Both the position numbers and the translations under genes were made by a program. A stretch of DNA of 63,839 nucleotides, the filler included, from Craspedostauros australis (lineage: Eukaryota): assembly GCA_030167865.1 (NCBI GenBank). It is 8 parts of 8 records of this genome, joined end to end, with 100 filler letters (N's around TTAATTAATTAA, not from the genome) between each part and the next. Parts side by side here need not be neighbours in the genome. Positions count along the whole stretch, not along the records: positions 1 to 16,087 come from JALAGF010005682.1; 7 more parts are not named here. One strand, written 5' to 3'. A model generated the notes under the pieces. It had not been told where the DNA came from, searched no databases, and worked only from the letters and a program-made list of their open reading frames with translations. Below, in pieces: positions 1 to 44,095 of the stretch (within the stretch, counting starts at the first letter, position 1; each line of letters begins with the position of its first letter).

Positions 1-820
1 ATGAAGGAGAATACGGAATCTCCGGAGTTGGTGGAACAAAATGTGAGGACACAATTGCTTCGGCGAGTCAGAGCTGCAATGGAGGGACTAAAAAAATAAA
101 TTAGCACTGCAATTGACATCGAGAATTCTTCTTTTGGCGATCCGAATCAAGGTACAAAGACACTGAATCTGGCCGTTGTGCGCTAGTCGTGTCTAGATGA
201 GCGCGAAATCAATGGGTCCATAAAAATTAAAATTCGACAATAAAGAAAAATCGGCGTCCACTGTGATTCTTATATTTTTCTCTAGTTTATGAATATGTGG
301 GTGGTTTGGTTGAAAGCCCCGTAAGTTGCCACCCCTTCAGGACCGACTGCAGGTCCCGTCACACAACCGGGTCATATCTCCCTATTGATCTGTCGCATTC
401 GTTGATCTTCTTCGATGGTCTTGATCGTAGTCGAATCGGTCGAAGATTCGGGTTTTCGAAGATCCGCAAAAGAGAACTCTGTTGTGGTGGGAACGTGTTT
501 CCTTCCTTCTTGTTGTCTGTGTCCATTTCCGTGATGGATGAGAACAGAAGGATCCAAACCACACGATCTTGACGCGTACGATCAAGAGGAGGCAAACACA
601 AACAACAACACACACCAATCAACCCCATAATCGAGCACATCAACAACAGACATCGAACTGCCACTCATAGTCATCACACAGCGAATAGTACTCATCCTAA
701 TACAAGCTATTGAAGACACCACCATTGATATCTCTGCCATAGTAGATAGCTCAGACAACACACTTCCTTGACAGCCAATCCCACACCAGTCGTCCAGCAA
801 CCATCGACCAGCCTCTCAAA

Positions 821-2463
821 ATGCCGAATATCACAGACTACCAACTCCTTGATGCTGCCAGTGCAGGTGACTTGTGGGTGTTGAAGGAATGGAAGAAGCA
901 GAACAAGACGCAGAATGAAGGAGTTGACATCAACAAGGTTACAGACGACATGGGTTCCACTCCCCTTCATGAGGCATGCATTGAGGGCCACCTGGAGTGT
1001 GTGAAGTACCTCTTCGAATCATGTGGGGCTGACGTCAACCGCAAAGCCAGGCTTGGTTCTACTCCCCTTATTGATGCATGTGGCAGGGGCCAGCTGTGGT
1101 GTGTGAAGTACCTCATTGAATCATGTGGGGCTGACATCAACTGCAAAAGCTGCGATGGTGACACCCCCCTTCAGCAGGCATGCAAACACGGCCAACTGGA
1201 GTGTGTGAAGTACCTCATCGAATCATGTGGGGCTGACGTCAACTGCAAAGGCAAGTATGGTGAAACTCCCCTTCATCATGCATGCCTGTACGAGCACGTG
1301 GAGTGCATGAATTACCTCGTGGCATCAGCCAATGCTGATACCGGCATCCAAAACAACGACAACAAAACACCCCTCGAATTCTTCAATGCAAAACTTCGAA
1401 TCATTTCTCAACATCTCAACCATCTGAGTCGCTGCAACTCGCGACTGCGGCAACAGTTGGAACGGGAGAAGCAGGAGAACGAACAACTGAAACACCAGTT
1501 GGGACAGAAGTTGAAGCGGAAGGAACAAGAGAATGAACAACTGCAACAACAGTTGAGACACCAGCCGAAGCGAAAGAAGCAAGAGAATGAACACAACACA
1601 GTAGCCACAAGAGGACCAACATCAGCATCGGAGAAGACTGGCTCAGATCCTTCCAAGCCGAGAACAGGACAGGCACCATCTTCTTGTGCGAACAAGGAGA
1701 CAACCAACAACAGCCAATCAAGGCCAACTCTGGAGTCCTCATGATCACCGTCCCATCCATTGAGACTCTGATCAACTCTGGAATCCAACACCAGCACGCG
1801 AATGATGACACCGAAGACGGCGCAGCTCCCATGCAAACAACCATTCCTCTTCCCAACCTTCAACCAAAACACGTCCGATACGTCCTCCAATGCATCTACA
1901 CAGGTGAGATATCCTTCGACAACAACAATCATGATGACAACGCCAATACCGGTGACACAAACCAGCCAACTCCCACCCTCACTGGACAAGATCATCTGCA
2001 ACAGCTGATCCTTGTGGCCAACGAGTTCAGCTTCTGGCGACTCAAGCTTGTTCTTGAAGCAGAGTTGGCCCGCAAGCATCTCACAGAGGACACCATGATA
2101 GATGTGTTGATATTCGCTCATCAGCACAACTGCGTGGTGTTGAAGGATATGGCGATGAGAATGGCAGCTGAAAGTGAGAAGGATACGTTCACTCATCTAG
2201 ATTTAAGCAAACTAATTCTACAACCTCAACTGATGGGAGGTATTTGTGTCCTCCGCAATGGGGGAGCGGAGAGTGATGGTATTGAAGATGAGTACAGTCA
2301 TATGTCCATGATGGAGCTGTACAAGGTTGTCGATGAGGACAAGGGTACAGAACAAATGGATTCATACATGGATCGGGTGACATTGGTGGACTTCGTCTGC
2401 TCTATGACTACCAAATCATCCATAGTGGTTGAGACGGATGGTGCTGGTGCAGAAGAGGAGTGA
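821..2463 (+). CDS. Ankyrin repeat-coiled coil-BTB/3-box protein, paralog 1 (frameshifted at ~1591-1615)
   Basis: Four 34-aa GxTPLHxAC..GHLECVKYL repeats and a Q/E/K coil (ORF 821-1744). BTB-like IKANSGVL..LPNLQPKHVRYVLQCIY..LILVANEF..RLKL lies in another frame (ORF 1684-2463). Paralog 3 has both parts in one frame. Confidence 0.85.
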
Positions 2464-2579
2464 AGCGCCACACCAGACCATGCCATGCCATACCGTACCA
2501 GAAATCTTCCACAAGTGAACGCATGACAGAATTGAGTCGACGGATAAAATAGTCGTCAGAATAGTCATTAGGATAGTAA

Positions 2580-3830
2580 CTATGTGAAAGGAGGTGGAGC
2601 AACTTGAGATCCAATCATTGAATGGTGCGTCCGGCATGCCTTCACCGTCGCCTTTGGTGATATGCACAGCATGCTGCTCCATGCAGTCCCGTATCGTTCG
2701 CAGCGCGGTCTGGCTGGGCCGCGAGATGCGCATGATCTTCTGTGCATGAATTGCAGATGATCCCGGTTGGCGCACGGCACGTTGGTGTGCAGCATCATTG
2801 GCCAATGCGACATGAAGAAGATGGTTCAGCCACCGCTGTCATCGCCGTGATCGTCGTTGCCGATCATATGGTTTCCACGTTCGTTGGTTTCGTTAGTGTG
2901 GAAGGAGTTTTTGCGGGAAACGATGGTGGACCCCGCGGGCATCATGCATGGCTTGTTGGACTCGAATCCAACTTGATGAAGTGGAGCGTACTGCGACTGT
3001 CAGCTTGTTGTTGTTGTTGCTGTTGCTGTTAGTGCAGTTCGTGCATGATGTTGCGCAAGGTACAAGCGTATGCCAGCAGTTGCATGGTTTTCGATATGGC
3101 CGACAAAGATGACGAGCAAAGGGAGAAGTCGCCGATGCCATTGCACAGGATTTCAATAATGGTGGATCCAAGGAGACAGTGCCTCTGTCTCATCATGTGC
3201 GGTTTGTGGTGGGGACGTATCGCTTTGAGCATCGGTATGAACAAGCGTGGCTGGTTGTGGTACGTGTTGTGGAAACTGAGGAATATCTCCGAGCTGATGG
3301 CTCTGCAATTCTCGAAAGAAGTCGCTGCGGCCGATCTCACGGATGCACCCGTCCAACATTTGCTGCATCTCCGTTTCCGACAGTGCATCGGACGTTTATG
3401 TGCGTGCGTGCGGCTGCTGATGACTTGAATCCAGACCGCACCATGGGCCATGACATGTCTTGCCGTTGCTGTTGCCATTACAGTTGGTTCTGTTGTTGGC
3501 GCTGCCATTGCCCATGTCCCAAGCTCTCCTCTACTCCGGAGCAATTGGTTTGACATCTTCCTTTCTGATGTTGTTGAGCGATCTGACAAGTTTGGGAACG
3601 CTGTTTGTCGCCGCTTGCCACTCATCATCAGCGTCATCATCATCATCAGCATCATCGGCATCATCATTGTCTCTTGCAATGGTCGCCTTCGTTGATTCTG
3701 GTTGGCGTGCCATAATTTGCGCAGCCGCTACTTACTTGATTACTTCATTGCTTCGCTGCCTTGTTGCTTCGTTGCGTGACGGACAATGTCTCAGTGTTGG
3801 CTGATACCTCCATCAATGCAAACATAGTCA
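2580..3830 (-). pseudogene. Degraded gene of unknown family, copy 1
   Basis: Protein-like fragments (HNQPRLFIPMLK..RHCLLGSTIIEILCNGIGDFS..) conserved with copy 2 but split by stops and frameshifts; ends approximate. Confidence 0.5.
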
Positions 3831-4066
3831 TGCCATTTCATTTTTCTTGCTCTCTCTTTCTCGCTCTCTCTCGTTGTGTTGAAGTCGCTTGATGGATCAT
3901 GGGTGCAAAATCGAAGATTCGTTGTTTTGGGTGGTGTCAAGAATTGTTGGCGTGTTTGTTGAGTACTCGTCTGTCTGCCATCCGTAGTTCATTCAACCAA
4001 TGACGCACACAAACACTCACAACGAACATCTCTCTGTTCTCTTCATTCGACACAACTCTGTTCGAC

Positions 4067-6480
4067 GATGGTGATGGTGATGGCGACCCCTCCAACAGCG
4101 CCGCATCCCTTCACAATTGGTACCACCGACGCAAACACCAACACAAACAATCAGACAAGATGATGAGACATCGACATCCAAGAGGAACTGTGGGAAGCCT
4201 CGCCAGTTGCTCCGCATCTTGACCCACCCGTCCTACGACCAAGAGTATTACTATGGAACCTTCCATGAGCACGATCTACTCTGGGAGTTGCCACAGCCAA
4301 GCGTCCAGCCTGATAGGTACTCTGTTCGAACCTTCGTCCAGCCCGTGCGGTCATGCGGTCATGACGATCGAAGTTGCTGGAAGAGGACGGTGTCAGACTG
4401 ATAGCTGAGAAGCAAACGGAGACCAAGCAATCGCAACAGGCCGACACGAAATCGAAGGCGAGCAAGCCCACAAGCGTAGCCAAAGAGGCCAAAGCAGCTG
4501 CAAAATCAGGTCGTCGTGCGAGTGTCAGCACAGATACACCAAGCAGTGCCAACAGAAGTACAGCAAAAGATGCGAAAGCTTCGGCTGTGAAACGATCACA
4601 TGCGAAGAGTCTGGACATGCTCGACATTCTTGACATGCAAGCTCACGAGATGTCATTCAGCTCCTTTGATCCCAGCAAGTTCATCAACAACGAATCGATA
4701 CCGTCGCCAAACACCCCAGATGGACTCAGCTTCGCCACAGCCCCAGCACTCGGCGCAACCCGCGAACGGAGCAGCCAAGACAAGATGATGCTTGCCCAGA
4801 GTCGGAGACGCAGGCCAACGACACAAACGAATTCCAACGGAACGACCAGCACCGACAAATCGAGGAGCAAGAGTTTGGAATTCTTGGAATTCTTGAAAGA
4901 CGGGCACATCCGGCACACCAGGCGCGATGAGCGCAGCCAGCACGCTGGCCCTACCTCGAGTTGCGACAACGAAAAAGTCTCGCAGCAAGAGCCCGGAGTC
5001 ACTCTCCAATCTGCCAAGTCTCCAAGACGACGACGATGGCAGCGTCGACGTTGCGCCAAGTGTTGCTGCAACGAACGGTGGGAGAAGCTCTGCGGCCCCT
5101 GTCACGCCTGGAGGTCAGAGCGCGGCATCTACACCAGCCCCCTTCAGTCGCACACATGAATAGAGACAGCAGTCTTTGTCGTTGAACAAGTGCAGGTCGG
5201 CGTTGGACAGCATCCTCAAGGTCAAACGATCATCAATACGTGAAGTGTCGTTGACCCATCCTCCCAAATCGAAGCAACGACCATCTCTCGAATCTTGACC
5301 ATCGCAATTGGCCGATCTTGCCTTGACTGAAGCATCCGCAAAGGCGTCATCATCGCCGTCATCATCGCCGTCGCCACCGTCATCATCATCACAGTCCAAA
5401 TCCAAACTCAATCTTCAACAGTTCGAACGCAACCACGAACATGGAGGTGTCTCGGCCACAACCCCAAGCCCCATCCAGTCCTGGAGCCTTGAGTTTGGCA
5501 ATTGAATTGAAATCGAACAAGAAGGAACGAGGGGCTCCTTCTCACAACAGATCTGCACGCAGTTCGTTGCGCCCAAGTGAAGACTCAAAGCAACGACGTT
5601 CACGTGGACGAAGCACGGGTGCTCTGCGCGATGAGATGAAGGAAAGGATCTCCAAGGTGCTTGGCAATGGGTCCCGACGTCACCACTCCAGCAAAACATG
5701 AGGCGTGTCATCACCATTGATATTACCATCGATATCACCGTCTCCACGGCACTGGCGGAGAAGCGCACAGCACACCAGTGGCAAGCCGCACTCGACATCG
5801 TCAAGATCAAAGAGTGTGGAGCGTTCGCCATCATTGAGTCATCGTCGCGACGGAGCAATGCACACTTGCTCCTCTGGAAGAAGCTGCCGCTCGCCATTGG
5901 CGTGGAGTCGTCGAGGCCCGTCTGATCGCTACCGCAGAAGAACTGCGCAAGTATCGATGGACTCATCTCCATCATTGCAGAGACAACGAACATCTGGCTG
6001 TTTGGATGATATGAACGCAGCCTCGCGTTCACGCCAATCCAACTCAAATGCGCACTCCACTGGTACTGGTTTGCAACGGCGCAACGGCTCACCTTCGTGA
6101 AAGCATGACCGAGGAAGGTCGCGAAGACCAAATCAACGTGACCGTAGCCAATCGACACCATGTGGCGAAGATCAACGAAGGAAGTCCTCCGATGAACGAT
6201 CACCATCGGCGCGACAACGAAACAGATCAAGAGGATATCGAATTGACAGCGTCGAACGGCACAGCAATGAGCGAGATGAAGATGGACGGCATTGTAAACA
6301 ACGACATGGCAAGGAACGCCCGTCATCACACGGGCCCTTCAATCAAATCGCCGTGGACGAAGCAGATCGTCGACTCGCGATGCTGTCTACCATGAGAAGC
6401 TGTCTGACACCAAGCCACTGCAACTCACACCAAATAAAGCGGTCAGGAGCAAAAGCTCATCTCAGTACCGCAATCGCTTG
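4067..6480 (+). pseudogene. Degraded Ser/Arg-rich, probably disordered protein gene, copy 1
   Basis: ORF pieces 4374-5159 and 6048-6395 match 14026-14640 and 15650-16084; several stops and frameshifts. Confidence 0.5.
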
Positions 6481-8260
6481 ATGAATGGTACCAAAACTCT
6501 CACCTGTGATGCATCACGACACGATGGGATGGAATGAGATGAGATGGATGGGCCGCTCCGTACTCGTATCATATGCATAGAGGTGTGGTAGACTCACGTC
6601 GCTGTAATATAATACACCTACGAATAGACTGTAATGTTCTATGATATATAGGATTGGAACAGTACCGCAAGCATTGTATCTGCTTGTGCCATAGAATGCT
6701 GAGATGAAGGCACCGGATGTTTCAAGAGATTGAAGGGTTGGATACTGCTCCCACGCTGCCTCCACCTTGTGTACGACGAGTCTGGTCTGCTCTCTGCGGT
6801 ACAGTACATACCCACACAGGGATGTTGCCGATGTCATTCATGAGCAGATTGAACGTCCGTGGTTCCATCCACACTCCGCCATCAGCATCGTTGTTGGTTC
6901 GTTGCGCAGACAAAGGACGAATGGCAACAGCATTGTCACAAGCCGTGCGGTCGTCACAGGGCAGTCGTCACCGTACCACCGGATTCGCACACAGAGCACT
7001 CTACTCCAAGTCACACTACCAAGCAGATGCAAAGCAACAGTGCCGATGCCAGCCGATCCAAGTTTGTGGAAGAGACGATCTACGAAGAGCACATGGCGAA
7101 CATGGTAGAGGGAAATGATGGGAAGCCATGAGGAGCATGGTTGCTGCGCGATTCCATCGACCGTCCCGTATCACGCTATTGTCCTCATCTCACCATGAGT
7201 TGCACTCCGCCATTGCGCCAACACTGCAGTCGAGACCCTTATCAAGTCCCAGGAGGAGCGATCACTCGCGGTTACAGCAACAATTGCCAGGGTCACCATC
7301 CATTCCATTCTTCGAAGCGACCAGTGCCAGCGTGGCGGAAATACAAGAACCGACGAGCCAGCGCAGTCCAAACATCCAGAGAGCTTGACGAGCAACAGAA
7401 GAAACCAACGAACCAACCAACAAGCAACCCCATGCAGAGTGTGAGTACTGTATTGCGGATCATGGTTGATACAGAGTTTCCATATGGTGCAAGAAGTACG
7501 TGGTCAGCGATCCATGGCCCATGCGCGCACCGTACACCCACATATCCTCCTTTGTGGTGCTCCCAACTTCGTTCGTGAGGCGGAGGTTCTTGTCGATCGC
7601 CTCGGTTGAGCATCGATGCTCTGGAAGTCACGAGCCAAGATGGCGGCACTCATGCCTATTGATAGAATGCGCATGGTGTTGTGTGTTGGTGGTCCGTGCG
7701 GCAGGAACAGTGGAGGCGGCACGGTATCACTCAGCTTGTTGATTGCTGAACGTGTCAACTCATCCCAATACGCAATGTGGTGTTGGTTGGATGTGGAGGA
7801 CTCTTGTTGCCCGCGCGGATGGTGATGGTTGCAGTGCGGTGGGATGGCAACCAGTCAAATCCAAATGAGATGGGTCGCAACTAACAAAGGCAGTCACATC
7901 GGTGGCTTCATGGTTGTTCAAGGCATTGGTTCACACCTCCAGTTGGTGCTTGCGATGGCAGGCGGACAAGGGTCAGCGGTCTTGCAGATGCCACGATGAT
8001 GCAAGCAAGCGTGGGCCATGATGCACATGGTGGTGGCGGCGGTGGTGGCGACGATGACAGCTGTCTGTGTTTCCGAAGACTTTCACGTTGTTTGCTTCGG
8101 ATTGGTGTTGCNTTGATTGTGGCCAAACGAGAACTCTGTTGTGGTGCTTCTTTCTTGTTGTTGGTCGCACGCATTTTCGTGATGGATGGGAACAGAAAGA
8201 TCCAATCCGTGCGAACCAGACGTGTTTGATCAAGAGAAGGAGACAAACACAGGCAAACAG

Positions 8261-8619
8261 TGTTAAAATAGCGCGCTGCGGAATCGAACCACGGAGCCAG
8301 TCCACGCCCTGCATGAACACAAGAAATTAACGCTTATAACCCATGTCGCGACACCCTCCCTAATTCTTGGATTCATGCCCTTGAGCCCCCCTATCATGAG
8401 GACCCCCCNNNNNNNNNNNNNNNNNNNNNNNNNNNNNNNNNNNNNNNNNNNNNNNNNNNNNNNNNNNNNNNNNNNNNNNNNNNNNNNNNNNNNNNNNNNN
8501 NNNNNNNNNNNNNNNNNNNNNNNNNNNNNNNNNNNNGCGCGCTGCGGAATCGAACCACGGAGCCAGTCCACGCCCTGCATGAACACAAGAAATTAACGCT
8601 TATAACCCATGTCGCGACA
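8261..8619 (-). mobile_element. LTR retroelement with 93-bp LTRs, interior mostly hidden in a gap
   Basis: Direct repeats 8261-8353 and (8537)-8619 with TGT..ACA ends. Minus-strand PPT AGGGAGGG at 8354-8361. AAACAG flanks both sides (8255-8260, 8620-8625). Confidence 0.75.
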
Positions 8620-8915
8620 AAACAGAAGGAGGAGACCATGCGAACAAGACAACAACACACACACATCACTCAACACCATACTCAACCGCGTGAACAACAG
8701 ACATCGAATTGCCACTCATCCTACTATTCATCACACAGCGTATGGTACTCATACTCATACTAATACAAGCTGTTGCATACACAAACATCGATATCTCTTC
8801 CATAGGCAGCTCCGACCACAGACATCCTCGACAGCCAATCCAACGTAAATCGTCCAACGTCCAACGTCCAACGTCTATCGTCCAGCAACCATCGACCATT
8901 CACCACACTCTCAAA

Positions 8916-9589
8916 ATGCCGAGTGTTACCAACCAACAACTCATTGATGCTGCCAAGGTCGGTGACTTGTCAGTGTTGAAGGAGTGGAAGAAGCAGAACA
9001 AGACGCAGAATGAAAGAGTTAATGTCAACAAGGTTACAGGCTGGCTTGGTCGCACTCCCCTTCATGAGGCATGCGACAACGGTCACCTGGAGTGTGTGAA
9101 GTACCTCATCGAATCATGTGGGGCGAATGCCAACTGCCAAAGCAACAATGGTTGGACTCCCCTTCATCATGCATGCTCCAAAGGCCGCCTGGAGTGTGCG
9201 AAGTATCTCATCAGATCATGTGAGGCAAACATCAACTGCAAAAACAACGATGGTTGGACTCCCCTTCATGATGCATGCTACAACGACCAGCTGGAGTGTG
9301 TCAAGTACCTCATCGAATCATGTGAGGCGGACATCAACTGCAAAAGCAACCATGGTTGGACTCCCCTTCATTGGGCATGCTACAATGGCCACCTGGAGTG
9401 TGTGGAGTACCTCGTTAAATCAGCCAATGCCGATACCGACATCCAAGACAACAGCAACAAAGCACCCCTCGATGTAATCGGTGTGAAACTTGCAATCAAG
9501 ATGATAAAACGTCTCGATCATCTGAGTCACCGTAACTCACAACTGCAGAAGAAGAACGAACACCTGGAACAGCACTTGGAACGGGAGAA
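8916..9589 (+). CDS. Ankyrin repeat protein, paralog 2 (3' end lost in gap)
   Basis: ATG in the same CTCAAAATGCCG context as paralog 1; four ankyrin repeats and the start of the coiled coil. Confidence 0.85.
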
Positions 9590-9640
9590 GNNNNNNNNNN
9601 NNNNNNNNNNNNNNNNNNNNNNNNNNNNNNNNNNNNNNNN

Positions 9641-11384
9641 AGAAGCAGAACAAGACACATCATGAAGGAGATGGTGTCAACTGCAAAGACATCCACGATT
9701 TCACTCCCCTTCAATGGGCATGCTGCTACGGCCACCTGGAGTGTGTCAAGTACCTCATCGAATCATGTGAGGCGGACATCAACTGCAAAACCAACTATGG
9801 TTACACTCCCCTTCATTGGGCATGCTACAACGGCCACCTGGAGTGTGCCAAGTACCTCATCGAATCATGTGAGGCGGACATCAACTGCAAAAGCAACGAT
9901 GGTTCCACTCCCCTTCATGATGCATGCTCCAAAGGCCAGCTGGAGTGTGTTGTGTACCTCGTTGCATCAGCCAATGCCGATACCGACATTGAAAACAACA
10001 ACAACAAAACGCCCCTCGATGTGATCGATGCAACACTTCAAATCAAGATAAACCGTCTCACACATCTGAGTCGCTGCAACTCACAACTGAAACAGCAGTT
10101 GAAATGGAAGGAGGAAGAGAAGACACAGAAGGAGGAAGAGCATGAACAACTGAAACAGCAGTTGGAACGGGAGGAGGAAGAGAAGAAGCAGAAGGAGCAA
10201 GAAAACGAACAACTGAAACGGCAGTTGGAACGGAAGGAGGAAGAGAAGACACAGAAGGAGCAAGAAAACGAACAACTGAAACAGCAGTTGGGACGAGAGG
10301 AGGAAGAGAAGAAGCAGAAGGAGCAAGAAAACGAACAACTGAAACGGCAGTCGGAACAGAAGGAGCAAGAGAAGACCCAGAAGGAGCAGGAGAACGAACA
10401 ACTGAAACAGCAGTTGGAACAGCAGAAGGAAGAAATGCAGCACATGCTCTCGAAAAGTCAACAGGAGAACGAACAACTGAAACAGCAGCTGAAACAACAT
10501 CTCAAGATCAGCATCGACCAAGATCGTCTCGTCGCTATTCGTGCTGAGGCCATCGCAGACATTACCTTCCTGTGTGGACAAGGAGACGAACAACAAGCAA
10601 TCAAGGCCAACTCCGGAGTCCTCAGGGTCACTGTTCCATCCATTCAGACACTGATCAACAAAGGAATCCAACATCAGCACNCGAATGATGACACCNAAGA
10701 CGGCGCGGTCCCCATCGAAACAACNATCCCTCTCCCCAACCTTCAACCAAAACACGTCCGATATGTTCTCCAATGCATCTACGCAGGCGAGATATCCTTC
10801 AACAACAACGCTCATAATGGCAACGCTGCTGCTCACGTCAGCGCTCACATGGGCGCTCACTCCAACTCACACCACGATACAAATGCCTCTCACCAGCCAA
10901 CTCACACCCTCAATGGACAGGATGATCTGCAACAGCTCATCCTTGTGGCCAACGAGTTCGGCTTCTGGCGACTCAAGCTTGCTCTTGAAGCAGAGTTGGC
11001 CCGCAAGCATCTCACAGAGGACACCATGATAGATGTGTTGATATTCGCCCATCAACACAACTGTGTGGTGTTGAAGGATACCGCAATGAGAATGGCAGCT
11101 GAAAATGAGAACAAATTGTTCAGTCATCCAGATTCCAAGCAGCTATTTCATCACCCTCACCTAATGGGAGTCATTNNNNNNNNNNNNNNNNNNNNNNNNN
11201 NNNNNNNNNNNNNNNNNNNNNNNNNTCCATGATGGAGCTGTACAAGGTCATAGATGAGGACAAGGGTACAGAACAAGTGGATTCATACATGGATTGTGCG
11301 ACATTGGTGAACTTCGTCCGCTCTCTGAGTACCAAATCATCCATAGTGGTTGAGACGGACGGTGCTGCTGCAGAAGAGGAGTGA
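9641..11384 (+). CDS. Ankyrin-coiled coil-BTB protein, paralog 3 (5' end in gap)
   Basis: Frame open from 9643 (KQNKTHHEGDGVNCK..) through three ankyrin repeats, coil and BTB to a gap at 11176. C-terminus ..AAEEE* matches paralog 1. Confidence 0.85.
10084..10420 (+). repeat. 63-bp coding tandem repeat (21 aa, three heptads), about 5 copies
   Basis: Unit ENEQLKRQLERKEEEKTQKEQ; GAACAACTGAAAC recurs every 63 nt. Confidence 0.9.
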
Positions 11385-11590
11385 AGTGTCAGACCATTTC
11401 ATACCATGCCATACCGTACCAGAAATCTTCCACAAGTGAACGCNNNNNNNNNNNNNNNNNNNNNNNNNNNNNNNNNNNNNNNNNNNNNNNNNNNNNNNNN
11501 NNNNNNNNNNNNNNNNNNNNNNNNNNNNNNNNNNNNNNNNNNNNNNNNNNNNNNNNNNNNNNNNNNNNNNNNNNNNNNNNNNNNNNNNNN

Positions 11591-13491
11591 GCATGCTGCT
11601 CCATGCAGTCCCGTATCGTTCACAGCGCGGTCTGGCTGGGCCGCGAGATACGCATGATCTTCTGTGAATGAATTGCAGATGATCCCGGTTGGCGTACGGC
11701 ACGCTGCTGTGCATCATCATTTGCCAATGCGACATGACGAAGATGGTCCAGCCACCGCTGTCATCGTCGTGGTCGTCATTGCCGATCATATGGTTTCCGC
11801 ATTTGTTTGTTTCGTTGGTGTGGAAGGAGGTGNNNNNNNNNNNNNNNNNNNNNNNNNNNNNNNNNNNNNNNNNNNNNNNNNNTCATTAGGATAGAATCTG
11901 TGTGAAAGGAGGTGGAGCAATTCGTAATCCATTCATTCAATGGTGCGTCCGGCATGCCTTCACCGTTGCCTTTGGTGATGCGCACCGCATGCTGCTCCAT
12001 GCAGTCCCGTATCGTTCACAGCGCGGTCTGGCTGGGCCGCGAGATACGCATNATCTTCTGNGAATGAATTGCAGATGATCCNGGTTGGCGTANGGCACGC
12101 TGCTGTGCATCATCATTTGCCAATGCGACATGANGAAGATGNTNCAGCCACCGCTGTCATCGTCGTGGTCGTCATTGCCGATCATATGGTTTCCGCATTT
12201 GTTTGTTTCGTTGGTGTGGAAGGAGGTGCGTGGGAAACGATGGCAGACCCCGCTGGCGTCATGCATGGCTTGTAGAACTTGAATCCAACGTGACGGAGCG
12301 GGATGTACTACGGCTGTCAGCTTGTTGGTGGTGGTGGTACTGCAGTTCGTGCATGATGTCGCGCAGGGCACAAGCGCATGCCAACAGCTGCATGGTTTTC
12401 GATATGGCGGACAAAGATGACGAGCCATGGGAGAAGTTGCCGATGTCATTGCACACGATTTCAGTAATGGTGGATCCAAGGAGACAGTGCCTCTGTCTCA
12501 TCGTTCGCGGTTTGTGGCGGAGATGCATCTCTTTGAGCATCGGTATGAACAGGCGTGGCTGGTTGTGGTTCGTGTTGTGGAAACTGAGGAACATTTCCAA
12601 ACTGATGGCTCTGCAGGTCTCGGGAAAGTCGCTGCGTTTGATCTCACGGATGCACCCGTCCACCATGTGCTGAATCTCCGTTTCAGACAACGCATCGTAC
12701 GTTTCTGTGCGTGCGCGCGGCTGCTGATGACTTGAATCCAGACCGCANNNNNNNNNNNNNNNNNNNNNNNNNNNNNNNNNNNNNNNNNNNNNNNNNNGAG
12801 CCATGGGAGAAGTTGCCGATGTCATTGCACACGATTTCAGTAATGGTGGATCCAAGGAGACAGTGCCTCTGTCTCATCGTTCGCGGTTTGTGGCGGAGAT
12901 GCATCTCTTTGAGCATCGGTATGAACAGGCGTGGCTGGTTGTGGTTCGTGTTGTGGAAACTGAGGAACATTTCCAAACTGATGGCTCTGCAGGTCTCGGG
13001 AAAGTCGCTGCGTTTGATCTCACGGATGCACCCGTCCACCATGTGCTGAATCTCCGTTTCAGACAACGCATCGTACGTTTCTGTGCGTGCGCGCGGCTGC
13101 TGATGACTTGAATCCAGACCGCACCATGGGCCATGACATGTCTTGCCATTACTGTTGGTTCTACTGTTGGCGCTGCCATTGCCCATGTCCCAAGATATTC
13201 TCTACTCCGGAGCAGTTTGTGTGATATCTTCCTTTCTGATGTTTCTGAGCGATGCGGCACGTTGGAGATCGCTGTTCGTCGCCGCTTGCCATTCATCATC
13301 TGTATCAGCGTCATCATCATCATCATCATCATCGTCTCTTGCCATGGCCGCCTTCGTTGATTCTGGTTGGCATGCCATATTTGCGCAGCCGCTGCTTGCT
13401 TGATTACTTCATTGCTTCATTGCTTTGCTGCTTGACGGACAACGTCTCAGTGTTGGCTGATACCTCCATCAATGCAAACATAGTCATACCA
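11591..13491 (-). pseudogene. Degraded gene of unknown family, copy 2 (with assembly-overlap duplicates)
   Basis: Homologous to 2580-3830; ORF pieces 12259-12855 and 12683-13186. Confidence 0.5.
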
Positions 13492-13717
13492 CTTCATCTC
13501 TCTTGCTCTCTCTCTCTCTCTCTGTGTTGATGTTGTTTGATGGGCCATCGTGCGAAATCGAAGATTCGTTGGTTTGGGTGACATCGAGAATTGTTGGCGC
13601 GTTTGTTGAGTACTCGTCTGTCTGTCATCCGTTGTTCATTCAACCAATGACGCACACAAACACTCACAACGAACATCACCAATGTGTTGTCTTCGCGCAA
13701 TGCAACTCTGTTCGACG

Positions 13718-16087
13718 ATGGTGATGGCGATGGCGACCCCTCCAATGAAGCCGCATCCCTTCACAATTGGTACCACCACCAACAACACAAGCACAAACAA
13801 TCAGACAATCAGACAAGATGATGAGACATCGACATCCAAGAGGAACTGTGGGAAGGCTTGCCAGTTGCTCCGCATCTTGACCCACCCGTTGTACAACTAT
13901 GAGTATGGGACCTCCCATGAGTATGATCTACTCTGGGAGTTGTCACAGCCAAGCGTCGAGCCTGATAGATACTCTGTTCGAACCTTCGTCCAGCCCGTGC
14001 GGTCATGTGATCATGACGATCGAAGTTGCTGGAAGAGGACGGTGTCAGACTGATAGCAGAGAAGCAAACGGAGACCAAACAACCGCAACAGACCGACACG
14101 AAATCGAAGGTGAGCAAGCCCACAAGCGTCGCCAAAGAGGCCAAAGCAGCTGCAAAATCAGGTGGTCGTGCCAGTGTCAGCACAGATACACCAAGCAGCG
14201 CCAACAGAAGTGCAGCCAAAGATGCGAAAGCTTCGGCTGTGAAACGATCACATGCAAAGAGTCTGGAGATGCTCGACATGCAAGCTCATGAGATGTCATT
14301 CAGCTCCTTTGATCCCAACAAGTTCAACAACAACGAATCGATGCCGGCGCCAATCACCCCAGGTGGACTCAGCTTCGCCACAGCCCCAGCACTCGGCGCA
14401 ACCCGCGAATGGAGCAGCCAAGACCAGACGAAGCTTGCGCAGAGTCGGAGACGCAGGCCAAGGACACAAACGAATTCCAACGGAACGACCAGCAGCGCCA
14501 AATCGAGGAGCAAGAGTTTGGAATTCTCGAAGGACGGACACCACATGCCAGGCACAATAGGCGCGATAAGTGCAGCCAGCACCCCGGCTCTATCCCGGGT
14601 TGCGACAACGAAGAAGTCACGCAGCAAGAGCCTGGAGTGACTGTTCAATCTGCCAAGTCTCTACGACGACGACGATGGCAGCGTCGACGTTGCGACAAGT
14701 GTTGCTGCAACGAACGGTGGGAGAAGCTCTGTGGCCCCTGTCACGCCTGGAGGTCGGAGCGCGGCATCTACACCAGCCCCGTTCAGCCACATACATGAAG
14801 AGAGACAACAGTCTTGGTCGTTGAACAAGCGCAGGTCGACGTTGGCAAGCATCCTCAAGATCAAACCATCATCATGACATGAAGTGTCGTCGACCAATCC
14901 TCCCAAATCGAAGCAACGACCATCTCTCGAATCCCGACCATCGCAATTGGCCGATCTTTCCTTGACTAAATCATCCGCAAAGGCGCCATCATCGTCATCA
15001 TCGCCATCATCATCGCTGTCATCATCACAGTCCAAATCCAAACTCAATCTTCAACAGTTCGAACGCGAACACGAACACAGAGGTGTCTCGGCCACAACCC
15101 CAAGCCCCATCCAGTCCTGGAGCCTTGAGTTTGGGAATCGAATTGCAATCAAGCAAGAAGGACCGGGCGTCCCCTTCCCGCAACAGATCTGCATGCAGTT
15201 CGTTGCGCCCAAGCGAAGACTCAAAGCAACGACATTCACGCGGACGAAGCACGGGTGGTCTGCGCGACGCGATCAAGGAAAGGATCTCCAAGGTGCTTGG
15301 CAATGGGTCCCGACGTCACCATTCCAGCAAAACAAGAGGTGTGTCATCACCATTGATATTACCATCGAGATCACCGTCGCCACGGCATTGGCGGAGAAGC
15401 GCATAGCACACCAGTGGCAAGCTGCATTCAACATCATTGTGCCATCGTCGTGACGGAGCAATTCACACTTCCTCCTCTGGAAGAAGCCGCTGCTCGTCAT
15501 CGGCGCGGAGTCGTCGAAGTCCGTCCGATCGCGGCCGCAGAAGACTGCGCAAGTATCGATGGACTCATCGCCATCATCGCGACGCCAACGAGCATCTGGC
15601 AGTTCGGATGATGTGAACGCAGCCTCGCGTTCACGCGAAACCAACTCAAATGCGCACTCCACCGGTACTGGTTTGCAACGGCACAAGGGCTCACGTTCCC
15701 GAAAGCATGACCGAGGAAGTTCGCAAAGGCCAAATCAACGTGGCCATGGCCAATCGACACCACGTGGCGAAGATCGGCGAAGGAAGTTCTCCCATGAACG
15801 ATCATCATCGGCGCGACAACGAAACAGATCAAGAGGATATCGAAATTACAGCGTCGAACGGCATAGCAATGAGAGAGATGAGAATGGACGGCATGGCAAA
15901 CAACAACATGGCAACAAACGTTCGTCATAACACGAGGCCCTTCAATCAAATCGTTGTGGACGAAGCAGATCGTCAACTCGCGATGCTGTCTACCATGAGA
16001 AGCTGTCTGGCACAAAGCCACTGCAACTCACATAATAGAAAGTGGTCAGGAGAAAGAGCGCGTCTCAGTGCCACCATCCCTTGATGA
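13718..16087 (+). pseudogene. Degraded Ser/Arg-rich protein gene, copy 2
   Basis: Homologous to 4067-6480, with different stop and frameshift lesions. Confidence 0.5.
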
Positions 16088-18512: not shown

Positions 18513-21500
18513 CTACCTACTTGTACGGTTGGACCAGTTGGGATCCCTGACGACCTCCACCATGATGTCAATCTCCTGCTTCAGACGGAAGAGCACCATG
18601 CGGAGCGTCTTCAGCTCGTCCGATCCAACGCGCGAGCCGTTCAATGACACGACCGTGTCTCCCACCTGAAGTTTCATTGGATCCATCGTCATGGGCCGGG
18701 CCTCCGTGGAAGACACAGTCGACGCATCCGGAACGGCACCAGCTTGGACCGACGAGGAGGCCGTCACACCCCCACTGGTTTCCTCCTTGTCATCCGACTC
18801 TCGAACAGGACCCACGGATGCCACCAGCAGGCGGCTCGACGCGGTCTTGCGACGTCGATCCTGGATCACTTGCAACGTCAGATTCCACAGATCTTCGCGC
18901 GACGGGCGTTCCAACCGGACCATCAGCTTGCTGCCCGGGATGTCGCTGGCCAACGGCAGGTCCAGCACCTGAAGTCCTGAACCGTCGTGGCCGTGGTAGC
19001 TCTCATCTGAGTCGGACACCAGGTCGATCACCCCATCTTCATCCTCCGAGCTTTCGTAGTCAGATTCCTTCGCACCTCCGATGTCATCGTTGGCCGCCTT
19101 GCTCTCGAATCGAATGTTTGGCCGCGCAGTGCTCGTAACGAAGTCGGCTGTGGCTGCATCGTCCTGCGCGGTGTCGGGGCCGCCGCCCTCAGCGTCATCA
19201 TTGCCCCCGCCCCCGCCGTCGCCATTGCTGCCATTCCCGTTGATGACGGTGGCACCGAACCGCGCAAAGAGGTTGTGCTTGAATGGGGACGGTGTTGCTG
19301 CCGCCGCCGCTGCGACGGGAGCTGGTTCGCTTCCGCTCTTTGGCTGAGGGGATCTGGATGCTGATCGTGTGGAGTACGCAGGCGAGCTTCGGGTTGCCAT
19401 CCTGGTCGGCGTGGTCTTGCCGCTGCCGCTGCCGTTGGGCGTCGCGGATGCGTCACGAGGCGGTGTCGATGGTGCCTCGGCCTTGGCCTTGGGCGACGAG
19501 CTTGCGGATCTCGCGGTCGCAAGAGCATTCCGATTCTTCGGACTGCCACTGCTACTGCCACTGCCACCGCTGCTTTTCTGGTGATGAGTCTTGGATTTGG
19601 AGAATCGATGTGTGATGCACCGGAAATGGCGCTTGCCATTCCTCCCAAACTTCCAGCCCGACTCCATGGCGCACGAGATGTGGTAGAACAAGTAACAATC
19701 GTCCTCCATGCACTTCACAGTGGCACCGGTCTTGCGGCATTCGTTGCACCGTTTCGCTTGGCGAATGGCAGCGAAGATGTTTTGGTACTCCATGCCCATC
19801 CGCGAGGATTCCAGCGGCTTGGTCTCCACAATGTTCGTGTACTTCGCACACAAATTGTGAGCGCAAACCTGCTGCTGCCTCGCGGAGGATAGCGAGAATG
19901 CGAGCAGCTGACCAAGTCCATGATCACGGTCGGTCCCTTCGGGGGCCTTGCAGAATCCGCAGATCATCTCGGAGGCAGGATTGTGCGCCAAGAAGAATGG
20001 CATGGAGACGCGATCGCACGCACCCTTCGACACCTCGTCGTTCGTCGTTTGACGGTGAAGGTCGCACAGGAACACCTTGCCATCCCGATCGAACCTCCAG
20101 CCGGTGTCTTCGGCGCAGCCAAAGTGATGGATGCGGTAACAACCCTCGGCTGTGCAACCGATGGTGGCGCCTGTCACGCCGCAGATGTAACACTCCAGCT
20201 GTCGTCCGCGGGTCACGGCACGGAGAACGTTCTTCCACTTCCCGTCGATGACTTCCACCTCAGGCGAGTATTCCGCGCAGTTGCTGTGCGCAAGTGTCTG
20301 CCTCGCACCGCGTTGGAATGCGAGTAAGGCTCCCTCTCGGATTTGGCTGCCTTCCTTGTGGCACAGCCGACACGTGAGCTGTTCGTGTCGATTCTCGTAT
20401 CGGTACACCACCATCGGGATGTTCTTGTCGAGGCTGGCGTCTTCCCTTTGGCCGGACTTCATGGCCGACACGATCTCCTTCGCTGCGCGCAGTCCCGAAA
20501 TCATCGCCCCATGCGCCATGCTGGGGTGGAGCACCGACGTGTGCTCGCCAGCAAAGAACAATCTCATCGTGCCTGATCTCTCCGACGTGAGCGGGTCGTT
20601 TTCGGCGTTGATGGGTGATTTCAGAAGATGGAAGTCTTGATCTGTCGCACCGGGCGGCAGGTATGTGTAGCAACCTCTGGAGAACTTGTCATGGCCCCAC
20701 CGTGTGATGCGATGTGCGATGGGTTCGGGGACCTCCATCTTGGAGAAAATCTCTCGCAGGGTCGACATGACTTGCGCCACCATGTCTGCATCAGTCAGCC
20801 GTTCGCAGGCGACCGCCTCCTTGCCGGAGATCAGGGTCATCAAGATGGCGGGGCGGCTGTCCTTCGTGCCGAGGATCTTGCCCATGTCGAAGAACATGTA
20901 CTGGTGAGGGTTGACGCCGGTGGAGTTTCCAAACACGCTCTTCACCGGATCGTCGCCCAGAACATCCAGCTCCCTCCAAAACGGCTTCGCGAACTGCACG
21001 TACACCTTGTTTAACAGACCGAACCCCACATTCTGGATCGCATCGCGTTTCGGGAACGGCAGGTTGGGAGAAAATGTGACCTTCTCCGTGGTGTGGACGT
21101 CGTACGCCTTCGCCACGGAATCCTTCAGCACACCCAGTGGCAGAGCGCTGACAAGGAAGTCGAAGTACATCGTTTGGGTGCCGTCCTGCCTCGACACGCT
21201 ACACGTATCGGAGAGCTCCACCAGTCTGCGTATCCTCCCAGACATTCGGTCGCGTTCTGAATGCGGCTCGGTGGACGACTTGCGGGCGTACTCCACCCTA
21301 CCGATGGGGTAGTTGAGATGGCACTGGAATCGATCTGGCCCCGTCTTCTCCAATTCCTTTCTGATGTGCTCAACGACGCTGGAGTAACCTTGGGGGAGGA
21401 GGACGTGGTCACCCTCGAAGGCATGCCGTTCGTCGGAGTCCCAGTGCCTCATGGAAAGATCAACGATGTTGGCTCCAAGTGCGTACTCGATGTTCTTCGT

Positions 21501-24206: not shown

Positions 24207-26547
24207 ATCGAGATTGTGCGGAGTAGGTCAGAGCAAAGTGCATATCACACGTGCATGGTGTAAACGGCATGGAGATTGGGTTTGGATGGGCAGTGGTTGG
24301 GTTGGTGTTAGGCTGTTGCCATCAAACAAGATACGCCTACATGCGTCGAGTATCCACAAGCTATGCGTGTGATGCGATTACTCCTGTGGCGCCATACTTT
24401 TCCAATCCCATCCCATGATCTGACGCAAACAACGAATGGCACGCTCGGTGCACTTGTAGCTTGTCACACTCTCTCTCTCTCTCTCTCCAGAACGCGCATA
24501 GTACGAGAGTCTATTGAATGATGCTCTAGGTCATTGGCATATCGTGGAATGACCACATGTGGGTGCTGTCGTGAGTCGGTGCTGTGACATCTAATACGTA
24601 AGATAGTTCCAGAAAGACGCACTTACCTCCGACATGATGGCGAATGGATTCTTTCCAAAATCGTCCTGGGATTCTGGCAGTTGGGGTTGGGGGGAGTTGG
24701 GTAACTGGATGGATCGACGTTAGGGATCTCGTGAGTTGCAGATTCGGTACGGGTACGATTCCAGAGTGTCGCCCCTATGCATGGATACTGGGTCTCAGCA
24801 ACACGGTGAGAGTTAGAAGATAGCAAAGGTGACGAGCCAGCGAGAGAGAGAGAGAGGCATCACTTGCAAGTCTTCGCAGGGGTGACGGAGGTGATGGTGA
24901 TGACCGTCACGCCATGGTGGATGCTCCCGTTTGCCACTTTTTCGTGGGTGGTCTTCACGGTGGTGGTTTCTCTCTTGTCTTGTGTGCACAAAAGCGAACT
25001 TGGACAGAGGAGGGAATTTCCGTGGAGAGGAATCGTAGTTTTCGTTGTTGTTGGAGGGAGCTGACGAAGAACGACAAATTGATGTACTCGTGATTAAATC
25101 AGTCTTGTATAAAACACATAATTGTAAATTCGAAGTAGTCGATTGTTCGAAACAACGAGTCGTGTATTACTGTCAACCACGTTTGGATTCGAAACAAGAT
25201 CGACATGAAACAAGACGCGCACCAAACACGTTTTCGGTTGTGCTGTGTTGGACTGCGGTTCTGCTGTCTACGGGCTCTCTGACAAGAGAGAGAGAGAGAG
25301 AGAGAGGATACTGAATGCTGTCAGCATTCTTCTCCTTCCTCCCGCACACCCTCCAAGCTGCATCATAGAATATTCTATTTTATGACATAATAGCTCGATG
25401 CACTCTCTTGTTATATGTTCCAGGTATCACATCTACTAGTACCATATGATTGAGTTCTTCGCCAGGTTCGGGAGTCGGGAGGTTGGCGGATGAATGTCGC
25501 TGGTCATGAATTGGGGGTACTGGTGAGTTCCGCTCTCTGCACCGGTTGTCGAACTATCAGCGTTCATGGTATGTGTATTGGTACGTACATGCACGCCAAG
25601 AGGTGACAGATGTTCGCTAACCAAGATTGAGCATCATCGTATTGTGTATACGAGCTATGATACGAGTGCAAGCATTCCGCTTGACGTTGACCAGTACTCC
25701 TCGAATTGGTCTTGGAAGTGATTCGAAATGGGAGAAGACATCGCGTCGTATTTTCGATGCCTGTCTCAGATGCGAGTTTTAATATCATTATGATACAAAG
25801 AGCCAATGTTTCCAATCACAAGAGATTCAATCAGTCCACCACCCCATTGCTTGCACGAGTATTATAATAGTGTATTACTTCCCAAGGGCTCTCACCCTGC
25901 TTTGGAGGGGAACTGTCCCTCTCACGAAGTGTGCGGCTCCGCCTCCGAGAATGGAAGAGAACAAACAGGCTACCAACAAAAGGTGTGGAAGTCCATGGTG
26001 AAAAAGAATTATATCATTGTTTTTCATATCATTCTTGCTGCCGTTCCAACAATCAAAAACTCGATAATGAAGAGCCATCGTTTGTCAGTTCTGTATGTTT
26101 TTGTTCGTTACCGAGCGGACAGTCAAAAAGTACTCATACTCTCGCTGATGATGAGATGCACGTTCTCTTTCGTCTCGTTTTAGCCAACCTGTTCTGCTAA
26201 AATGTGTTGTTCGGGTCGAAACGGAAGAATGACAGTAGTTAATTTGCCAACGGCCTGCACAATTTGAGTGTTATTGTAATACACCTTAGATCCTCCAATC
26301 GGAGGGAGAAGAGGAAAAAGACAGGCAACAAGAGAGAAAGCTGAGCAAAAGCTGCCCAGGCGATGTCAGTCCCCATGACGCCTTGCCCTCTTCGTCGCGC
26401 TGTTGCCACAAGCAGGGGCCTGAAGATCAACAGAAGCTGTCCGAACGCATCTGCACCTCTCCATAAATCCAAAGTGGAGCAAGTCCTCAGGCACTTTCAC
26501 ATCCAGACAATCAATCATCCACAATCGAACCAACATCAACAGTCACC

Positions 26548-29500: not shown

Positions 29501-30552
29501 GTGGTAAGATCGGTATCTACGTCAGTGTCAGGGTTGTGGAAGGCAGCGGGGGAACTGTCACCGCCGTCGATGACGAATGGAGCTTGGCTGGAGTCATGGG
29601 CATCATCGATCCCATCAAGAAGGAAGCGGCTTCCTCTATCCGAGCGCTGCAGCGCATGGGCCTGTCCGTTTGGATGTGCACGGGTGATCATGCAAGGACG
29701 GCAAGCGCCGTTGCGCGGCAGCTGGGGATTGATGCCGACAAGGTCGTTTCCGGAGTCAAACCAGAAGGCAAGGCAGCCCTCGTCACGCAGCTGCAGGAGG
29801 AATCTGCCGTGATGCCGATGGAGCTCAAGGCGGATAGCGCCCGCTGGCACGACGGCTTGCTCCAAAGATACCAATCGAAACCACAAGCAGGACGCATCGC
29901 CTTCGTGGGGGACGGGATCAACGATGCCGTCGCTCTGGCACGTGCCGACGTCGGCATCGCCATCGGCGCTGGGACAGAGGTCGCGGTCGAGGCTGCTGAC
30001 ATCGTGCTGGTGAAATCATCGCTGCACGATGTCGTCGTCGCTCTCCACCTTTCCAAGTATGTCTTTCAGCGCATCCGGATGAACTTCGGCTGGGCCATGG
30101 GATACAACATCATCGCCGTGCCCTTCGCGGCCGGCGTCTTCTACCCCTTCACGTCCTTCCATCTGCCGCCAGCATTCGCGGGGCTCATGATGGCATTCTC
30201 GTCCGTCAGCGTCGTCACGAGTTCGTTGCTGCTGCGCCAGTACCGCAAACCGAGAATCCGGAGTGACGGCACGCTGTACTACGATCGAAATGAGATGGGA
30301 TGCTGCTCGCTGTGGACTACAAGGCTGCATGACACTGTCTCGCGATGCTTTTGCAGATATCAGCGGTATGGTCGCGTCGGCGATAGTGATGGCACCATCA
30401 GCGACAACAACAACAACAACAACAACGTGGATTCTCGGTGGCTTGGGGATGCGGGTCAAACCACATATCCGGGCAGCGACAGCGACGCTGAATCATCCGA
30501 AGGCAGCGGAACTGGGAGCGGAAGCGATGGGCCTTTGTTGGAGATGGTGTGA
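26548..30552 (+). CDS. ATP7: P1B-type Cu(I)-transporting ATPase (ATP7/HMA5-like)
   Basis: Three HMA domains (GMMCQKNC x2, GMSCAVC), TGE, CPC, DKTGT, SEHPL, TGD, GDGIND, and YN and MAFSS transmembrane Cu ligands. Confidence 0.95.
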
Positions 30553-38264: not shown

Positions 38265-38341
38265 AGCAGAGCACTCGTTGAGCACAACACTCGTTGAGCA
38301 GAGCAGAGCAGAGCAGAGCAGAGCAGAGTAGAGCAGAGCAC
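38265..38341. repeat. (AGCAG)n microsatellite just upstream of the STAND gene
   Basis: Directly visible. Confidence 0.85.
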
Positions 38342-38352
38342 AAGTTGGAGCC

Positions 38353-42195: not shown

Positions 42196-42295
42196 NNNNN
42201 NNNNNNNNNNNNNNNNNNNNNNNNNNNNNNNNNNNNNNNTTAATTAATTAANNNNNNNNNNNNNNNNNNNNNNNNNNNNNNNNNNNNNNNNNNNN
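42196..42295. other. Artificial scaffold spacer
   Basis: 44N-TTAATTAATTAA-44N. Confidence 0.97.
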
Positions 42296-43995: not shown

Positions 43996-44095
43996 NNNNN
44001 NNNNNNNNNNNNNNNNNNNNNNNNNNNNNNNNNNNNNNNTTAATTAATTAANNNNNNNNNNNNNNNNNNNNNNNNNNNNNNNNNNNNNNNNNNNN
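43996..44095. other. Artificial scaffold spacer
   Basis: 44N-TTAATTAATTAA-44N. Confidence 0.97.

Follow-up and report, generated by a model that had tools for sequence, protein, structure and literature searches.

A stretch of 63,839 bases from the nuclear genome of the diatom Craspedostauros australis (GCA_030167865.1; a gapped draft in eight joined parts with 53 runs of N, hereafter the window, to which all coordinates refer) contains three copies of a gene whose product has an N-terminal cap followed by three or four ankyrin units, then a coiled coil and finally a BTB region. We propose, with a probability of roughly 0.6, that these genes belong to a lineage-specific diatom family in which the ankyrin units are under diversifying selection, the arrays arose by duplication and exchange, and the BTB region possibly serves for docking to Cul3. 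The ankyrin units derive from a recent common unit, and five to seven codons of the beta-hairpin and first helix change amino acids several-fold faster than silent sites.

A six-frame motif scan identified exactly 11 ankyrin units in the window, all on the plus strand, in register and 102 bp (34 codons) long, and Tandem Repeats Finder reported a period of 102 at 959-1318, 9047-9413 and 9677-9949. The pattern ACTCCCCTT-N6-GCATG with at most one mismatch gave 11 matches, compared with 0.01 expected from 100 shuffles, and the 21-mer CTGGAGTGTGTGAAGTACCTC with at most three mismatches matched 10 of the 11 units (0.00 expected). A preliminary description made from the DNA had reported eleven 102-bp repeats with shared framework DNA, and the 11 in-register units lie where it had placed them. 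All of the hairpins it listed were recovered (DDMGS, ARLGS, SCDGD, GKYGE, GWLGR, SNNGW, NNDGW, SNHGW, DIHDF, TNYGY and SNDGS), as were the residues before the AC dipeptide (E, D, Q, H and W), the pairs after it (IE, GR, KH, LY, DN, SK, YN and CY) and the variable blocks that recur between genes, HWACYNGH (units starting at 9345 and 9790) and ACSKG (units starting at 9141 and 9892). The term near-constant, used there for the shared DNA, is apt for the eight internal units (74-92 of 102 bases identical) but not for the comparison of cap-type with internal units, where only 60-79 of 102 bases agree. Likewise, library is too strong a word for 11 units in three genes, although many related contigs with other hairpins are present in an outside sequencing run (see below).

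Numbering of the unit starts at the hairpin, such that position 4 is Gly, positions 6-8 are TPL and positions 11-12 are AC. Amino-acid identity among the eight internal units is 56-79%, and within-gene means are 53-61%. The variation is concentrated at codons 2, 3, 5, 10, 13 and 14, each of which encodes 5-8 different residues, and codon 1 is also variable. One inserted residue follows helix 2, which shifts position 33 of design libraries to codon 34, and this codon encodes K, Q or E only. Each internal unit also has four framework cysteines, at codons 12, 19, 27 and 33 (contexts AC, EC, SC and NC, respectively), and the cap-type units lack those at 27 and 33. Four cysteines per unit are unusual among ankyrin consensus sequences.

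That the units derive from a recent common unit is evident because even silent codon choices are shared. Each Leu position keeps its own codon, with CTT at codon 8 in all 11 units, and CTG at codon 17 and CTC at codon 23 in all eight internal units; such position-specific Leu codons reflect common descent or homogenisation, not codon bias. The pooled number of synonymous substitutions per synonymous site (dS) is 0.21 among internal units versus 0.28-0.34 in the flanks between gene copies. The binding positions designated a priori were those of the ANK-N5C library (2, 3, 5, 10, 13 and 33). Among the units at 9243, 9688 and 9790, the proportion of synonymous differences (pS) is 0.00 in 26 framework codons, yet the proportion of non-synonymous differences (pN) at the a-priori sites is 0.19-0.38.

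The absence of an excess of non-synonymous change over the synonymous background had been named beforehand as an outcome that would count against the idea, and the excess is present. The set of positions randomised in designed ankyrin repeat proteins (DARPins), which we take to be 2, 3, 5, 13, 14 and 33, has by Nei-Gojobori pooling a number of non-synonymous substitutions per site (dN) of 0.87-0.92 against a whole-unit dS of 0.21-0.30, a ratio of 2.9-4.3, and dN/dS in the 26 framework codons is 0.52-0.70. In a tree-free count of minimum changes, the replacement rate at the a-priori sites was 1.9-2.8 times the silent rate (p 0.001-0.018). Codon site models were fitted with purpose-written Goldman-Yang code on an IQ-TREE topology. 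For all 11 units, the log likelihood was −706.06 under M1a and −688.57 under M2a (likelihood ratio test (LRT) statistic 34.98, p 2.5e-8), with M2a assigning an ω2 of 6.5 to 19% of the codons (p2 0.19). Posterior probabilities exceeded 0.95 at codons 3, 5, 10, 13 and 14; for codons 1 and 2 they were 0.75 and 0.59, respectively. For the eight internal units the LRT statistic was 24.0, and codons 1, 2, 3, 5, 10, 13 and 14 had posteriors above 0.97. Alternative bootstrap topologies gave LRT values of 34-45 (five of five), and neutral simulations under M1a that included a mid-unit recombination break (the two halves evolving on label-permuted trees) gave values of at most 3.5 in 13 of 13 cases.

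Codon 14 is presumably a member of the DARPin randomised set. Codons 2, 3, 5, 10 and 13 are among those randomised in ANK-N5C (PMC4308713), in agreement with the earlier suggestion that the variable sites lie on the binding face. Mapping onto an AlphaFold model of copy 2 places the selected codons in the hairpin and helix 1 and none in helix 2, since helix 1 of the model comprises codons 7-13 and helix 2 codons 17-27. Because ligand-face codons outpace silent change, the pattern is one of diversifying selection on binding specificity. A targeted mutator of the diversity-generating retroelement type was considered and dropped, since there is no reverse transcriptase or template close to the variable region. 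The sole reverse transcriptase in the window is an open reading frame (ORF) of the copia type (RVT_2; 44052-46508, plus strand) ∼33 kb away, and the changes at the variable codons involve all bases.

The assignment of the units to the ankyrin family is based on Pfam and on the predicted structure. Ank matches (PF00023/PF12796) exceed the gathering score in all three copies (E 2.6e-36, 1e-46 and 2.1e-29 for copies 1, 2 and 3, respectively), although the unit has 34 residues and not 33. The AlphaFold model of copy 2, with a mean predicted local distance difference test score (pLDDT) of 74.8, shows a pair of helices for every unit plus a long helix at the C-terminus. In fold it is closest to the designed consensus ankyrin proteins 4QFV, 2XEH and 9GTK (E ∼1e-8), and identity is 41-44% to 4QFV and ∼34% to DARPins.

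Exchange between repeats is suggested, but not proven. Unit numbers are four, four and three in the three copies, and the Craspedostauros transcript product P0001 has a single ankyrin unit. The cap-type units appear mosaic, in that they cluster with one another over the 3' 33 nt (28-29 of 33 identical), while the 5' 48 nt of the caps are nearest to internal units of copies 2 and 3 (42-43 of 48) versus 32-33 of 48 with the copy 1 cap. Identical variable blocks occur in non-corresponding units, and the pairwise homoplasy index (PHI) test on all 11 units is significant (p≤0.001). The repeat shuffling envisaged in the preliminary description is suggested by these four lines, but not by PHI within the eight internal units. 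Informative differences in the 5' half fall mostly at selected codons, which weighs against exchange or is neutral to it. A GENECONV-like fragment test was not used as evidence, as it is confounded by the clustering of fast sites; the long shared tracts in the slow framework half make site permutation anti-conservative. We propose that new arrays would arise by segmental gene duplication together with unequal recombination or conversion between near-identical framework DNA, and that recombination between units would yield different unit numbers and hybrid units.

Apart from Ank and BTB, Pfam detected only weak coiled-coil-type matches in these genes, and no NACHT or NB-ARC domain. In copy 1 the BTB match (3.9e-05, 24.2 bits; gathering cut-off 20.5) is separated from the ankyrin part by a one-base frame change near 1594-1595, in a short A run ahead of the BTB region, and the ORF of the first frame ends at 1744. 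tblastn places the change between 1591 and 1621. With the additional A that four contigs of the outside run have behind 1594, the reading is that of P0001, and the frame change may come from a sequencing error or be genuine. A genuine frameshift would leave an ankyrin-coiled-coil protein that lacks the BTB region. In copy 2 the ATG at 8916 parallels that at 821. Copy 3 is considered a separate gene copy because the translation after the gap opens with the pre-repeat N-terminal motif of the family. The 5' end of this copy disappears into the gap at 9591-9640; a further N gap interrupts it at 11176-11225, its stop codon occupies 11382-11384, and its C-terminus parallels that of copy 1 (BTB 23.6 bits, or 24.4 bits on the ORF 9952..11232). 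The coiled-coil linker is made of DNA repeats, so the length of the spacer between ankyrin and BTB parts differs between copies.

In copies 1 and 3 the BTB/POZ profile (PF00651) scores above the 20.5-bit gathering cut-off over positions 8-86 of its 110, and P0179, a fragmentary relative from JGI, scores 28.0 bits over positions 6-108. The nearest protein-atlas cluster of the BTB region, found as a language-model neighbour, is a diatom BTB/POZ cluster (score 0.92). A single-sequence search of the PDB with the BTB part gave no match at E up to 5, and in a PDB profile search with a five-sequence family alignment the matches were driven by the ankyrin columns. An AlphaFold model of the BTB part from the same alignment was unusable (pLDDT 39.3). 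A comparison of the BTB part between copies (204 codons) gives a dN/dS of 0.45. Oligomerisation is common among BTB domains, and many of them recruit substrates to Cul3. By analogy with its domain family, the coiled coil and BTB region would oligomerise the protein, and the BTB region may dock it to a Cul3-type ubiquitin ligase, such that ligands that change quickly, pathogen or partner proteins for instance, would differ from one ankyrin variant to the next but be delivered to one effector. We infer the ligase-adaptor role, also put forward in the preliminary description, from the BTB match and the neighbouring diatom BTB cluster.

The family appears to be lineage-specific. In word-indexed searches of 5.8 billion proteins, the sole relatives were P0001 and P0002, both Craspedostauros australis transcript products, and P0179, whose units are divergent (its one in-register unit pair has 11 of 34 residues in common). 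When matches were scored on the ankyrin part, 88 full-length ankyrin proteins were returned, none with more than 48% identity and none with a BTB domain. A HMMER search with the ankyrin part among 1.84 billion representatives was uninformative about the family, as its best 150 matches consisted entirely of giant ankyrin proteins with many repeats, and metagenome scans by the protein pattern and by the framework DNA pattern gave no match. An outside sequencing run of contigs, of uncertain kind (X1), carries 0.12 of the sampled words of 700-2500, and no RNA run was listed as carrying these words. In X1, 1419 of 30,610 contigs match 600-8100 at 85% identity or more: 190 at ≥99%, 358 at 95-99%, 529 at 90-95% and 342 below 90%. 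Their letters at the junctions of units are different and on decoding by hand give further hairpin and helix-1 variants in the same framework. This indicates that many related copies exist, contig counts not being gene counts; X1 may derive from the organism of the window or from a relative. One X1 contig joins the end of the duplicated segment described below to its start, an arrangement as in the window. Summed X1 contig depth is also high at 6373-7878 (∼390-2700), like the gene and unlike 2859-5619 (2-180). The interval 6373-7878 has no long ORF with a Pfam match and no Rfam match, and could represent a further part of the segment that is transcribed or repeated.

All three gene copies lie on a duplicated segment of ∼8 kb identified by self-BLAST (Table 1). 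Mismatch between the segment copies is 0.17-0.21 in the promoter, ankyrin and BTB parts versus ∼0.10 downstream of the gene, and is 0.26 in one 300-column window of the coiled-coil stretch. The gene part (dS 0.31-0.34) is thus about twice as diverged as the 4 kb downstream. The divergence between copies switches near 2239-2305 (601-2239 versus 2305-6484, against 8651-16087). The higher divergence of the gene part could reflect a mosaic history, or alternatively constraint on the downstream DNA, which itself has no Pfam match.

Table 1. Positions of the duplicated segment, gene copies and repeats in the window.
Feature	Position	Strand	Basis and remarks
Duplicated segment, first copy	601..6484	.	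Self-BLAST match to 8651-16087
Gene copy 1: N-terminal cap, 4 ankyrin units, coiled coil, BTB region	821..2463	+	ORFs 821..1744 and 1684..2463; Pfam
Four 102-bp ankyrin units, copy 1	944..1351	+	Motif scan, Tandem Repeats Finder; starts 944, 1046, 1148, 1250 (last cap-type)
Coiled-coil coding repeat, copy 1	1467..1593	+	Tandem Repeats Finder; 54-bp period, 2.4 copies
Best Pfam BTB stretch, copy 1	1708..1941	+	Pfam; residues 9-86 of ORF 1684..2463; weak BACK_BPM_SPOP-like stretch after it
Duplicated segment, second copy	8651..16087	.	Self-BLAST; contains gene copies 2 and 3, with a gap between them whose N count need not equal its real length
Gene copy 2, 5' part: N-terminal cap, 4 ankyrin units, coiled-coil start	8916..9590	+	Cut by N gap 9591-9640
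Four 102-bp ankyrin units, copy 2	9039..9446	+	Motif scan, Tandem Repeats Finder; starts 9039, 9141, 9243, 9345 (last cap-type)
Gene copy 3: end of N-terminal region, 3 ankyrin units, long coiled coil, BTB region	9641..11384	+	Pfam, translation
Three 102-bp ankyrin units, copy 3	9688..9993	+	Motif scan, Tandem Repeats Finder; starts 9688, 9790, 9892 (last cap-type)
Coiled-coil coding repeat, copy 3	10083..10433	+	Tandem Repeats Finder; 63-bp period, 5.6 copies; expanded relative to copy 1

Several points weigh against the proposed interpretation. The analysis uses a small sample of 11 units with 34 codons each, and the codon models were run with our own code instead of PAML or HyPhy. The tree relating these paralogous repeats is uncertain, with bootstrap values of 17-67% at most nodes. 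The closest single unit pairs show no significant non-synonymous excess (p 0.12-0.67), and PHI on the eight internal units is not significant (p 0.06-0.26). Amino-acid identity among the internal units is below the criterion of 85% across 100 or more residues described for fungal NLR (NOD-like receptor) repeats (PMC4986451). The BTB scores are marginal, with P0001 (20.0 bits) and P0002 (19.5 bits) just under the cut-off, BACK_BPM_SPOP reaches 17.0-22.2 bits, under its cut-off of 27.4, and copy 1 has the frameshift ahead of the BTB region. The ligase connection is a prediction from the domain family. The draft assembly is gapped, and two of its 50-N gaps have duplicates on either side (self-BLAST): 12422-12747 and 12798-13123 are identical (100%), and 51982-52346 and 52397-52761 agree at 99.5%. 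Such duplicates look like scaffolding artefacts, and hence local copy number near gaps is not to be trusted; copies 2 and 3 could be alleles or mis-scaffolded.

A rival explanation is that the units are ordinary young duplicates without diversifying selection or any special mechanism, in which the least constrained ankyrin surface positions drift neutrally (ω∼1) while the framework is under purifying selection. Positions 2, 3, 5, 10 and 13 are the highest-entropy positions of natural ankyrins overall (PMC4308713), the overall ω under M0 is 1.16, M1a assigns half of the sites to ω=1, and single pairs lack a significant excess. Neutral drift is nevertheless improbable, because M2a fits far better than M1a (LRT 35.0 for the 11 units, with ω2 ∼6.5, and 24.0 for the internal eight), none of the 13 neutral simulations approached such values, and both the several-fold ratio of a-priori-site dN to unit dS and the tree-free test point the same way. 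An assembly artefact, in which short-read assembly of multi-copy repeats created chimeric units and a false arrangement, is very unlikely. The many N runs, the duplicates beside 50-N gaps, the gap between copies 2 and 3 and the copy 1 frameshift in an A run are what such an artefact would leave, and the order of units across the gap that precedes the array of copy 3 is not fixed by the assembly. However, there is no N within 821-2463 or 8916-9590 and hence none in the arrays of copies 1 and 2, internal units differ at 10-27 of 102 bases, which is enough for unique assembly, the same framework occurs with other hairpins in X1, and the selection signal is independent of unit order.

A further alternative accepts a diversifying ankyrin family but assigns the BTB region and coiled coil only to oligomerisation or scaffolding, as in BTB transcription factors or KCTD-like proteins, with no cullin adaptor; the role could then be in signalling or in sexual or partner recognition. 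The weak BTB match, the BACK match under cut-off and the lack of structure-level support from the low-confidence BTB model are compatible with this, and in Seminavis robusta BTB/POZ families are reported among those expressed in sexual stages, where genes with high piN/piS (non-synonymous to synonymous diversity) are enriched (PMC7335047). Against it, the nearest atlas clusters are BTB clusters, and in some of these a share of the members has BACK_BPM_SPOP (23% in the best cluster and 97% in the rank 21 cluster), and we regard a purely scaffolding function as unlikely. The diversifying ankyrin-coiled-coil-BTB family with possible Cul3 docking is the preferred interpretation.

A more far-reaching and doubtful extension of this interpretation is that diatoms possess a large germline repertoire of intracellular variable receptors, the faces of which are diversified by selection and recombination and which feed foreign or mating-partner proteins to a Cul3 ligase. 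If true, this would represent immune-like recognition of a kind undescribed in stramenopile algae, with targets from viruses, parasites and bacteria. Diatoms are major primary producers whose molecular defences against viruses, parasites and bacteria are poorly known, and a diversifying binding module joined to a constant BTB module would be a concrete candidate for defence or for sexual partner recognition. Full-text searches of a limited paper collection found no description of ankyrin or BTB diversification in diatoms. The natural variants also reveal the framework and variable positions that an ankyrin unit of 34 residues can accommodate.

The remainder of the window consists of ordinary nuclear genes and the copia element. 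These include an LSD1-like amine oxidase with PHD-like fingers (18516-24227, minus strand), a heavy-metal P-type ATPase (26467-30549, plus strand) and a 1303-residue open frame (38332-42240, plus strand; ∼27 kb from the ankyrin-BTB genes in the window) that matches AAA_16, a STAND-type ATPase domain (E 2.3e-15), and is possibly an NLR-like gene as judged from this match. A long satellite-like tandem array at 60535-62250 has self-match offsets that are multiples of 50 bp (83-88% identity) and a strong skew of C over G. Rfam gave no match on the whole window.

Other proteins that combine ankyrin repeats and BTB domains include animal ABTB1, ABTB2 and BTBD11 and plant NPR1 and BOP, although domain order and linkers differ; in NPR1, for example, the BTB domain is N-terminal. 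No sequence relationship of the diatom proteins to these was found beyond the shared domains, the nearest sequences being the diatom-type proteins P0001, P0002 and P0179. The diatom units resemble designed ankyrin libraries (PMC4308713) in their consensus-like framework and in the concentration of variation at positions 2, 3, 5, 10, 13 and 14, all six of which are variable codons here. Unlike such libraries, they are natural, the unit has 34 residues with an extra residue between helix 2 and the loop, the equivalent of position 33 is not variable and position 1 is. Each internal unit contains four cysteines, whereas cysteine is described as excluded from the designed libraries (PMC4308713).

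The preliminary description had also drawn a parallel with the repeats of fungal NLRs, and this parallel is apt. For the ANK, TPR and WD repeats of these receptors, positive selection at concave-face positions, polymorphism in repeat number and concerted evolution are reported (Dyrka et al. 2014, PMC4986451), and positive selection at concave-face positions is found in the diatom units as well. As described for Podospora, a conserved framework bears a few selected positions in the inner helix and hairpin, repeat number varies, the units are of 33-34 residues, and the diversity is proposed to arise from recombination between units (PMC4986451). Unlike the fungal receptors, the diatom genes have no NACHT or NB-ARC domain and their repeats are N-terminal to a coiled coil and BTB region. 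The arrays are also shorter, with three or four units versus 7 to more than 16 in Podospora, and the differences in repeat number observed in the diatom are those between paralogs (four, four and three, and one in P0001). With respect to function, nematode and plant adaptor families of the MATH-BTB and F-box types, for which a role in pathogen defence has been proposed on indirect evidence (Thomas 2006, as cited in PMC1866355), are likewise multi-copy and locally duplicated with an adaptive binding domain, the ligase-docking domain there being conserved (PMC1866355). In contrast to these, the binding domain in the diatom is an ankyrin array and not MATH or FBA, and variation extends to the level of the repeat unit. 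The closest evolutionary parallel to the diatom genes is the ANK, TPR and WD repeats of fungal NLRs and the closest parallel to their proposed function the MATH-BTB and F-box adaptors, and the proposed family would carry the principle of both into a new eukaryotic supergroup and a new domain architecture.

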